Translations under genes and position numbers: made by a program
The notes under the pieces: generated by a model
What the model was told of the DNA's origin: nothing
What the model saw: the letters and a program-made list of their open reading frames with translations, nothing else
The model's database searches: none
In this document: piece by piece, positions 36,890 through 42,438 of the stretch
How the letters are laid out: every line of letters starts with the position of its first letter
How positions within the stretch are numbered: position 1 is the first letter of the stretch
Source of the DNA: Eledone cirrhosa
Lineage: Eukaryota
Length of the DNA: 64,000 nt
Direction: 5' to 3'
Assembly: GCA_964016885.1 (NCBI GenBank)
Contig: OZ024743.1
Span: 31,248,001-31,312,000 of the forward strand

Positions 36890-36929
36890 CGATATTAATA
36901 AATGGAAACTATATTTATAAAACCATATT

Positions 36930-36995
36930 TATTTCATTATACCTATTTCAGGGATACCAAATTAAATTATGGTATGCCTTCATCAGACAAAATAC
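36930..36995 (-). ncRNA. Hammerhead-like motif in a PLE pLTR
   Basis: CTGATGA-aggcatacca(loop)tggtatccct-GAAAT-ag-GTA followed by AATAAA. Paralogous to 38070-38132. Confidence 0.6.
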
Positions 36996-37915: not shown

Positions 37916-38069
37916 TATATATATATATATTAAGTAGAAGGGATATTTAATTTGTTGGAAATTCAACAAATATAAATGTTTATAACTGATTCAGAACACT
38001 CGACAAGATATCTGGAGTAAATTTTCAATGATATTAAATAATTGGAAACTATATTTATAAAACCATATT

Positions 38070-38132
38070 TATTCTATTAATTATATTTCAAGGGTACCAA
38101 AAACATGGTACCCTTTATCATCAGATAAAATA
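38070..38132 (-). ncRNA. Hammerhead-like motif in a PLE pLTR
   Basis: CTGATGA-ta-aagggtacc(loop)ggtaccctt-GAAAT. An inverted degenerate copy lies at ~38212-38275. Confidence 0.55.
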
Positions 38133-38312
38133 CAAAGTGTGTTTTATAAATGTTGACATAGCCAAGGAAACAAATCTTATCAGTTGAATTTTCCTTATAA
38201 AACACATTTTGTATTTTATATGATGGAAGCGTACCGAAGTTTGTGGTACCCTTGAAATATATATAATAGAATAAATATGGTTTTATAAATATAGTTTCCA
38301 TTTATGTAATAT

Positions 38313-38400
<88 letters not shown>

Positions 38401-38469
38401 AAAAAGGGATGAAATCGAAAATGCAACTGAAGTCTTATTTTTTTTAAAAATATATATATTTATTTGGTT

Positions 38470-38507
38470 CCTTTACCGGTTTCGCAGTTCTTCTGCTTTT
38501 CAAAAGG
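38470..38507 (-). ncRNA. Minimal type I hammerhead ribozyme (inverted pLTR copy)
   Basis: Reverse complement of 39494-39531. Confidence 0.8.
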
Positions 38508-39457
38508 TGAGTTGAGATGGAGGGTCTGTGGTTTTTCTCACATCTGTGAGGTCAAACTTTGCTTTTGTTAGCAATTGCTTCAAATTTTTTGGCTGTCTTT
38601 TACTAAGAGTCAAAGATCGATCTGTGATTAAGCCTTTTAATTCATTACTTTGAGCAATGATCGATAGGTTTGCTTTGGCAGTGTTCAATATATTCTGGTG
38701 ACATGGGTTGTGTGTCATTATAAATGGTATGACCAGTTCTTGGTTTCTTCTTCCTTTGGTTGTTCTAAGTTGTTGTATAGGTATTTTTATAGCTCGCTGT
38801 ATGCCATTTTCTATAAGTAGAGATGGGTATTTTTGTTTGAGCAAAAATTCTCTTAGTTCTGTTAGGCGTTTGTACCTGGTATTCGTATCTTCTACAATGG
38901 TACAAATTCTTCTGGCTAGGCAGTATGGGATGTTGCGTTTTGTATGAGGTGGATGGCACGACATAAAATTCAGATATTGATGGGTGTCTGTGTGTTTATA
39001 ATATATATCCGTGGTAATGGTGGTGTCGTTTTTGATTATTGATGGGTGTCTGTGTGTTTATAATATATATCCGTGGTAATGGTGGTGTCGTTTTTGATTA
39101 TCATTATATCTAGGAATGGTAATTTGGTCCTACTCATCTCTTTTGTGAATTGGAGAGATGGGTGTAGGTTATTCAGGAGGATATTGAACTCATCCAGAGT
39201 ATCTAGAGATTCTGTCCAGATGATGAAACAGTCGTCAAGGTATCTCTTCCAAGATTTTTCAATGTACTTTCTAAAGTCAGTACTATATTTTTCCTCTATT
39301 TCTTGGTAGAGTTGTTGTTCTAAGTATCCCATTACAGAGTTCGCGTAAACGGGAGCAAACTTCGTTCCCATCGCTGTGCCTCTAATTTGGATGTAATTCT
39401 TTCCATTGAAGAAGAAAGTGTTGTTTTCCAGAATAAGTTTAACTGCGTCTAATATAA
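38500..39457 (-). pseudogene. Penelope-type reverse transcriptase (core motifs plus thumb), frameshifted
   Basis: Motifs GTAMGTKFAPVYAN, WKRYLDDCFIIW, LPFLDIMI, IYYKHTDTHQYL, SCHPPHTKRNIPY and RQPKNLKQLL. The frame is broken by a 62-bp tandem duplication (38975-39036 / 39037-39098). Confidence 0.92.
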
Positions 39458-39493
39458 ATGTGAGAAAAACCACAGACCCTCCATCTCAACTCA

Positions 39494-39531
39494 CCTTTTG
39501 AAAAGCAGAAGAACTGCGAAACCGGTAAAGG
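39494..39531 (+). ncRNA. Minimal type I hammerhead ribozyme, U3:A8 core variant
   Basis: cctt-TTGAAAA-gcag(aagaa)ctgc-GAAAC-cg-GTA-aagg: stem I cctt/aagg, stem II gcag/ctgc, palindromic stem III ACCGGT. Confidence 0.8.
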
Positions 39532-40004
39532 AACCAAATAAATATATATATTTAAAAAAAAGATAAGACTTCAGTTGCATTTTCGATTTCATCCCTTTTT
39601 CTTTATACTTCGACTCGTGTAGGACACCTCGGTTATTTTTCATTTTGTAAAAAAGAACCTCACTTTCTAATATATATATATATATATATACCTACATAAT
39701 TAAAGACAGGCAGACAGATGGGGTAGAGAGAAATACAGTATTACTATTACTTTGAAGAATAGTGTATTCAAATTTCAAAATAAATGTTGCTTCTGTGTAG
39801 ATAAGACTTCAAATATTTATTTTGAAGTATATTCTAGCGCATACGTTAGTCAACCATATGTAAAAATAGTGATTTGATATACCCAAATAATCCAAACAAT
39901 TTACAGAAGAACATTCCATCTAGGAGTGTTTAAATTTTGAAATCAATAAGTGTGAGCTTTCGAATATTTTTCACAATATATATAATGAATACAAAAATTA
40001 AACA

Positions 40005-40200
40005 GAAATAACGAAGCAAACGACTCGATGGGGAAATATATTAGTTTAACGTTTTCTATAGGAAGCAAGGCGTTTAACGTTTCGACCACAGCTCTTTCGT
40101 CAAAATATATAATGTGAAATAGGAGATGAAATAGAATGTTAGAGAATAAAAAAAGAAGTGATCGAAAAAATATTGTTCAGAAATACACATGCGCATTTGG
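40005..40200 (-). mobile_element. Solo PLE pLTR remnant with degenerate hammerhead
   Basis: Minus strand TTGACGA-aagagc-tgtg-gtc-GAAAC-GTT-aaa at 40073-40105. Confidence 0.5.
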
Positions 40201-40444: not shown

Positions 40445-40588
40445 AATTAAAATACTAGACTGTGTTGGATTTAAACACCCTCTTCGCATTATAGAAATGA
40501 CAGTAAAGATATAGCTCAATGTAATTAAACAGACCCGAAAAATTATGAATATAAACCAAAGAAACCTTCAATACATCAAAAGTCTTTA

Positions 40589-40631
40589 TTGGCCAACAAT
40601 GTTTCGTCCTATTAAGGACTCATCAGGGCAA
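40589..40631 (-). ncRNA. Minimal hammerhead ribozyme with canonical core
   Basis: ttgcc-CTGATGA-gtcc(ttaata)ggac-GAAAC-att-GTT-ggccaa, overlapping a downstream AATAAA. Confidence 0.82.
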
Positions 40632-40983
40632 GTAAAGCTATAAGAACAACTATCGGCCAATACAAGCCAGAAACTCAGAAGAATATGGAGTATACATACA
40701 TTAAAGCATAGGAAAATTATGAAGTAAAAATTGCTAAGGAAGTGAATAACATTTTGAACCATATTACAAATATAGTACAATGCAAAGACTAAAACTAAGC
40801 ACAAGTGGTGATATAAAGCGAGAATTACGGTACGATATATAATATAATATAATATAATATAATATAATTGATAAAGATAATAATAATAATATTAATAATA
40901 TTAAAAATATTAAAAATATTAAAAATACTAAAAATAATTAAAAGGCCTAATATACATATATATATATATATATATACATATGT

Positions 40984-41023
<40 letters not shown>

Positions 41024-41834
41024 CCATCAATACAAACACAAAGTAACACTTATTAAGAGTTTAAATATAAATATAATACATATATTATTTACAGTATAAA
41101 GAAATGAATAAAAATAAACATATAATATATAATATACTATATAATTATATAATTTATAATCTCCGGTCAATTTGCTCAAACAATATAAATATTACAATAA
41201 CACTATAATAACAATATTATAATATATTGGCATATAACTTAACAAATCATATAAAGTTACACACAGGGTAAGAAAAAAAAATATCATACAGAACTAAATT
41301 GTGTTGAAAAAATTGTGCTGGAAAAATATCTATACCGTTGTAACAAAACAGACGGAGGTCAAGTTTTTATACAATTGGTACAAATAAATATTATCTAAAC
41401 ATTATAAAAATTATAAAAACATATTACAGAATTTACAAAATTTAACATAATGGTACATTGAATAATCGGTAAATATTTAAGATCTATAGTACGATTACAA
41501 ACAGTGATATGATATAACAACTTCAATATTAAATAACAAACATAGTATAAGTATACATAATTACATGGCTGGTAGACAGACATGTGTGAATAAGTTAATA
41601 AGAACCAGACAGAAACTACGCACGGTAGTAAATAAACATAAATAAAATCAACCGGAAATAAAAAAACAAAAACAAATATATTTACTTAGGTGAACACAGG
41701 CAGTTAAGTAAAAAAATTAGGAATCAAACCCGGATAAATGATTACTTTTATAAGGTTTTCTAGTCATTTATCCGGGTTTGATTCCTTATTTGTTTACTTA
41801 ACTGCCTGTGACACCTAATTAAATATATTTGTTT

Positions 41835-42320: not shown

Positions 42321-42438
42321 CCGAGGAAGCGCTTATGCCCGAAACGTCGTCCCCCACCAACACCCGACTCTCCAGAGCGTGAAATTAATAAACATTCGTT
42401 GTACTTCCTCTCTGTGTTGTCCCTGTTCAAATTTTTCC

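Follow-up and report, generated by a model that had tools for sequence, protein, structure and literature searches.

The window, which is the whole stretch of DNA that was analyzed, comprises 64,000 nt of Eledone cirrhosa (assembly GCA_964016885.1, contig OZ024743.1, positions 31,248,001 to 31,312,000, forward strand). Its open reading frame list contains two Penelope-type RT frames on the minus strand, at 39485-39036 and 39057-38500, which result from the splitting of one RT by a 62-nt tandem duplication at 38975-39101. The C-terminal end of the second frame is ...KAKFDLTDVRKTTDPPSQLTF, and the minus-strand chimeric frame reads ...RQPKNLKQLLTKAKF-DLTDVRKTTDPPSQLTF. Its stop codon (38502-38500) is a UGA within a hammerhead core, and neither a linker nor a GIY-YIG domain was found downstream of the RT frame at the locus, which bears out the original prediction that a Penelope RT frame runs into a pLTR and stops inside the hammerhead with no GIY-YIG endonuclease (EN). 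Two copies of the repeat are present, whose first common bases, ATGTGAG, lie at 38543 (minus strand) and 39458 (plus strand). They are 98% identical over 150 nt and are inverted, head-to-head, with (TA)n at both outer ends of the locus; repeat finding over the whole window was dominated by (TA)n. The sequences between these ends were assigned to two Penelope-like element (PLE) families, here called A and B, and the features of the locus are as follows.

38318..38397, no strand: (TA)n target microsatellite, left flank, from repeat annotation
38394..38546, minus strand: short-end arm of the family B pLTR, comprising 150 nt and the native CAG, in the orientation of the RT piece; 98% identical to the right arm, and many family B loci have this 150-nt end
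38470..38507, minus strand: predicted minimal type I hammerhead motif in which the chimeric frame has its stop codon; U3-A8 core variant with palindromic stem III, its stems checked on the near-identical right arm
38545..38550, plus strand: left junction TGTGAG, copy 1 of a 6-nt direct repeat; AG at 38549-38550 is common to family A (2-nt microhomology); junction unique
38549..39460, minus strand: family A pol internal fragment, RT residues 357-640 of 775, with GTAMG, YLDD, LPFLD and thumb and without motif A, linker or GIY-YIG
38975..39101, no strand: 62-nt tandem duplication that frameshifts the RT piece, not in the family A copies compared
39458..39464, plus strand: right junction, with ATG common to families A and B (3-nt microhomology) and the second TGTGAG at 39459-39464; junction unique
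39458..39672, plus strand: family B pLTR arm of 215 nt, of which 65 nt form a tail; opposite in orientation to the RT piece
39494..39531, plus strand: second copy of the minimal hammerhead motif, stems checked; predicted to be cut after 39527, going by hammerhead numbering
39670..39690, no strand: (TA)n, right flank, by sequence inspection

The family to which the RT piece belongs was established with a 221-nt junction query, for which the best 40 of 2,031 candidates were scored. All 39 non-self matches among those scored ended between query positions 152 and 157, at the beginning of the repeat, and each of the 29 that were fetched ran on into a CNDNRCGTC linker and an LIYC...YVGQT endonuclease, some with stops or frameshifts. 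A full family A unit (L046) carries a 775-codon RT-linker-GIY-YIG frame and its own pLTR, which differs from the arms at the locus. The RT piece was 96 to 99% identical to the family A protein, compared to 50 to 63% for family B, and the RT proteins of the two families are about 55% identical. Its closest relative among the 40 scored, L031 on another contig, showed 2 differences in 847 nt (99.8% identity), had 3 rare variants in common with the RT piece and carried an unbroken 775-codon frame through GIY-YIG; the other full-span family A copies compared differed at 5 to 14 positions. No family A donor copy was found elsewhere in the 64-kb window, and a 5' breakpoint hotspot in family A was unsupported, the 26 block starts being spread along the unit with only that of L046 within 2 nt of the break in the window.

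The original prediction of a retained RT did not hold. The piece spans residues 357-640 of 775 only and is without YGLPK(VHK), LRPI(IAG) and FDVVSLY. The last of these carries the first catalytic aspartate of RT, and in its absence the piece cannot be a working RT; the missing motif A together with the frameshift from the 62-nt duplication therefore demonstrates that RT function was not retained. Both parent families have the endonuclease. Pfam GIY-YIG scored above its cut-off in the C-terminal part of family A (24.7 bits) and in family B (31.9 bits), RVT_1 scored just below its cut-off in both, and the CX2-5CxxC motif is present in both RT-EN linkers, as CNDNRCGTC in family A and CGRSNCGTC in family B. 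In both families, ORF1 and RT are split at a U_UUU_UUA heptamer that is in frame for a -1 slip, seen in 10 family A rows (the listing being restricted to rows with a T run) and 2 family B copies (L046:5055-5145 for family A; the ORF1/ORF2 overlap of L114 and L115 for family B); an optional ORF1 frameshift is mentioned in the legend to Fig. 1 of PMC8557442.

The arms have a different origin. Nothing in the family A unit matched the 215-nt arm significantly (the best E value, 0.01, was to AT runs), and in L053 to L055 the arm lies approximately 1 kb behind a different GIY-YIG frame, the one with the CGRSNCGTC linker, which defines family B. Elements of both families have (TA)n targets, an inverted terminal copy and a one-sided tail, and the arms at the locus end at the two usual points of family B, 150 and 215 nt. 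Thus, the earlier observation of two pLTR copies with the same start base stands as far as the common ATGTGAG is concerned, but the copies are inverted and come from family B, not from the RT's own family. In the minimal hammerhead, CCTT/AAGG and GCAG/CTGC pair, and the 3-8 pair, stems I and II, GAAA and the cleavage triplet are present. Its stems recur in the minimum free energy fold, the stability of which was no better than that of shuffled sequences (z = -0.78), and the hammerhead of the arm was not detected by Rfam. The minimal hammerheads of PLE pLTRs described in PMC4209133 are likewise type I, and the U3-A8 core variant and pairs of close motifs on opposite strands are described there as well; compared to that part of the source available to us, nothing substantive differs, the spacing of approximately 1 kb here being due to the insert.

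Several other features of the window and of family B loci were recorded. An Rfam HH9-like hammerhead match below the gathering score at 40572-40642 on the minus strand (31.4 bits, E value of 0.00018) is probably the pLTR of another PLE family, and more hammerhead-like motifs were seen by eye at approximately 40055-40100 (minus strand) and 42322-42350 (plus strand). A long, near-perfect hairpin at 41670-41832, with sub-threshold Rfam miRNA matches attributable to chance, is likely another fold-back insertion. An inverted and repeated AT-rich unit (...GGAAACTATATTTATAAAACCATATT...) at approximately 38040-38310 and 36890-36990, flanked by (TA)n and also found beside other loci, probably represents another short fold-back family. 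Two very long degenerate (TA)n arrays occupy 53796-57126 (3.3 kb) and 59286-63747 (4.5 kb). Elsewhere, family B insertions are directly adjoined by RT and GIY-YIG frames from different Penelope-type families (L113:3821-5544 and L114:4714-6119), as would be expected if elements pile up in (TA)n targets that they share.

Copy numbers were then determined by a pattern search of the whole genome (3.0 Gb) allowing up to 2 mismatches, with 29- to 30-mers as junction probes. The left and the right junction each gave 1 match, and the native family A join of RT to linker at the equivalent place gave 1,163. For family A, the thumb end, this join and the EN core were matched 830, 1,163 and 1,374 times, respectively, a rise from 5' to 3' that is predicted by 5' truncation and not by a subfamily without EN. 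Exact matches to the 24-mer of the thumb end with a non-native next base numbered 3, namely, the window and 2 copies that still enter the linker and EN. The junction search that had been proposed as a means of finding many independent copies without EN thus returned the window itself; in this assembly, the other copies that were fetched keep GIY-YIG and the junction is unique. Of the original suggestion of a one-off deletion, the one-off character stands and the deletion does not: because the RT and the repeats come from two families, the locus is a capture, or chimera, rather than a deletion within one element. The first 28 nt of the arm were matched 12,872 times genome-wide (1 mismatch), and the TATA-containing stretch directly upstream of the arm was matched 3,635 times. 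Bare family B hairpins of 150 plus 215 nt that begin at the putative transcription start described below are many (e.g., L085/L086, L099/L100, L121 and L141).

We investigated the shared start base in 77 family B arms, sampled from the first positions reported for contig C1 (30 loci and a further 47 matches from 35 regions, with paired arms counted apart). The native upstream sequence was departed from 1 to 5 nt before GTGAG in 45 of these arms, at least 40 nt of it was kept in 29, and 3 were between. Thirty-one of the 45 hotspot arms face an inverted arm within 40 nt, 1 faces an inverted arm farther away, and 13 face none. In the family B pLTR, the A of CCAGATG lies 30 nt downstream of the first base of TATAAAA, and 30 nt is the usual spacing from TATA to start. 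The TATA motif 30 nt upstream, together with the clustering of junctions, suggests that the shared start base, the family B hotspot, is likely a transcription start.

At the left junction, read on the plus strand, the arm ends in ...CTCACATCT and is followed by GTGAG, the last two letters of which also belong to family A. At the right junction, family A extends to ...ATAAATG, the ATG of which is also the arm start. TGTGAG consequently flanks the insert on both sides, and when the insert is left out, the center of the locus is the same as the real hairpin centers at L121 and L141. Snap-back or filler letters occur at other hairpin centers (L106, L109/L110 and L137), and L106 and L137 show GTGAG snap-back additions without a foreign insert. 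L128:380-1200 holds a second sporadic join without EN: a family B RT fragment runs straight into its own pLTR, at a point 29 nt upstream of the arm start, and the thumb, linker and EN are left out. At L117:1038-2479, the EN/3' part of family B is joined to an inverted, family-A-like pLTR (82% identical to family A), which is possibly a reciprocal cross-family chimera or a nested insertion. These two loci indicate that sporadic jumps are not rare in this genome.

The best reading of the locus is that family A sequence was captured once, at the center of a hairpin insertion of family B in (TA)n, via template jumping or later repair. More specifically, we favor, with a probability of about 0.6, a single-copy, non-coding chimera with an 847-nt family A RT piece between head-to-head family B arms, formed by a template jump during family B insertion. 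It is established that the chimera derives from two families, that it is unique and that its frame is broken, and the letters of its junctions, with their microhomologies, are established as well; the steps that we infer for its formation would be as follows. The family B pLTR promoter, with TATAAAA 30 nt upstream, would produce a short RNA starting at approximately AGAUGUGAG. An intact PLE RT-EN, supplied by an ordinary EN-containing element, would cut (TA)n and prime at two sites, from which the ends of 150 and 215 nt would result, and the two cDNA ends would normally join head-to-head. Here, one cDNA end may instead have snapped back by approximately 5 nt and jumped, via the 2-nt microhomology, to a family A template, either an L031-like copy or its RNA. 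Approximately 850 nt of family A would then have been copied with one 62-nt slip, and the other arm joined via the 3-nt microhomology. The product has no predicted function. For a Poseidon element in vitro, two RT start sites define the tail and both strands are cut at AT-rich DNA (PMC11167929).

The same chimera could also have arisen later, if a finished family B hairpin was broken at its center by a cruciform or a nick and then mended by microhomology-mediated repair, with family A DNA or cDNA as the template. We consider this a possible but clearly less probable origin. The TGTGAG on both sides of the insert would fit insertion into a finished hairpin equally well, the insert-free sequence corresponds to real hairpin centers, microhomologies of 2 to 3 nt lie at both ends, and one near-identical candidate donor exists in L031. 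However, that donor-like copy is on another contig and the window holds no family A copy from which to patch; the snap-back additions at L106 and L137 indicate that the direct repeat needs no second event; and approximately 900 nt is long for a repair patch.

An artifact of assembly or library construction that joined reads of two high-copy repeats is improbable, although the uniqueness of the junctions would be expected of one and inverted PLE repeats are a known assembly problem (PMC8557442). Among the longest pieces listed from 7 public runs, which may come from other individuals or species, none bridges either junction, so that the evidence for the junction is the assembly itself; the native continuations of each family appear in these runs as loose ends at 38546 and 38549. 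Conversely, the form of the junction, with snap-back and microhomology, recurs at other loci, the arms show the usual 150/215 asymmetry of family B, and the RT piece has both its 2 differences from the closest scored copy and a duplication of its own.

We regard as very unlikely a spliced product, in which the CAG before ATGTGAG served as an acceptor and removal of an intron deleted the linker and EN. An AG does precede the arm start, and PLE pLTRs can hold introns (PMC4209133). The acceptor-like letters ttgacctcacag that had been noted are indeed present before the left copy, but they were created by the junction, TTTGACCT being family A and CAG being native to family B; the native context at this position is ...CCAACCAG. 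Family A and the arm do not belong to the same transcript, and family A continues with TAAC at the break, with no GT donor. Moreover, a splice acceptor is hard to reconcile with a break that wanders by 1 to 5 nt and with the variety of sequences found upstream of the arm start, since an exon join would be fixed. The least probable explanation, and one that we dismiss, is the originally proposed PLE lineage that retains RT, lacks EN and uses (TA)n breaks or a borrowed nuclease: the local frame does pass from thumb into pLTR without EN, and EN loss within EN-containing clades is reported elsewhere (PMC8557442), but there is a single junction copy, all 29 fetched relatives and L031 keep EN, the RT is frameshifted and without motif A, 4 of the 5 substitutions that set it apart from the family A majority alter the encoded amino acid (numbers that give a formal selection test no power), and the repeats belong to another family.

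The parents of the chimera fit the Neptune/Nematis type of EN-containing PLE, with C-terminal GIY-YIG and a CX2-5CxxC linker (PMC8557442, Craig et al. 2021). Compared to those elements, the locus is a fragment of one family inside the ends of another and not an element of either, and its tail is 65 nt, against the 30 to 40 nt given there. Parallels are also found in the rotifer Adineta vaga (PMC3846280), in which pLTRs are described that enclose unrelated sequence, have palindromic junctions in inverted orientation, are joined through microhomology and contain TATA and Inr-like motifs; template jumps are proposed. In that case, host DNA was captured, with an NRPS gene between direct pLTRs, whereas here an RT piece of another PLE family lies between inverted arms cut at a putative start site. 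The PLEs without EN, Athena, Coprina and MjPLE01 (PMC8557442), resemble the locus in having an RT followed by a hammerhead-bearing repeat without EN, here at one locus; unlike them, the locus has no telomeric-repeat stretch, complete RT or second copy and is interstitial. Telomere association was rejected separately, the locus lying 31 Mb into a 379-Mb contig with no reverse-complement telomeric repeat array nearby. A literature search, in which most matches were judged by title alone, found no title on cross-family PLE chimeras, and the part available to us of a bioRxiv retrozyme paper (10.64898/2026.07.22.740005) has no bearing on the junction.

Taken together, these results leave the lineage claim without importance, as the locus is one dead copy, a real but ordinary chimera. 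Its value is modest: it provides a clean record of the completion of a PLE insertion, with both junctions, a candidate donor and insert-free hairpins in one genome. It also calls for caution, since an RT that runs into a pLTR need not be one element, and RT and repeat should be assigned to families separately. We tentatively suggest that a short, promoter-defined family B pLTR RNA may act as an abundant mini-element, with cDNA ends that jump to other templates, among them those of other PLE families. If true, the locus would be the fossil trace of a template switch between families, and such switching would offer PLEs a way to lose, gain or swap domains.
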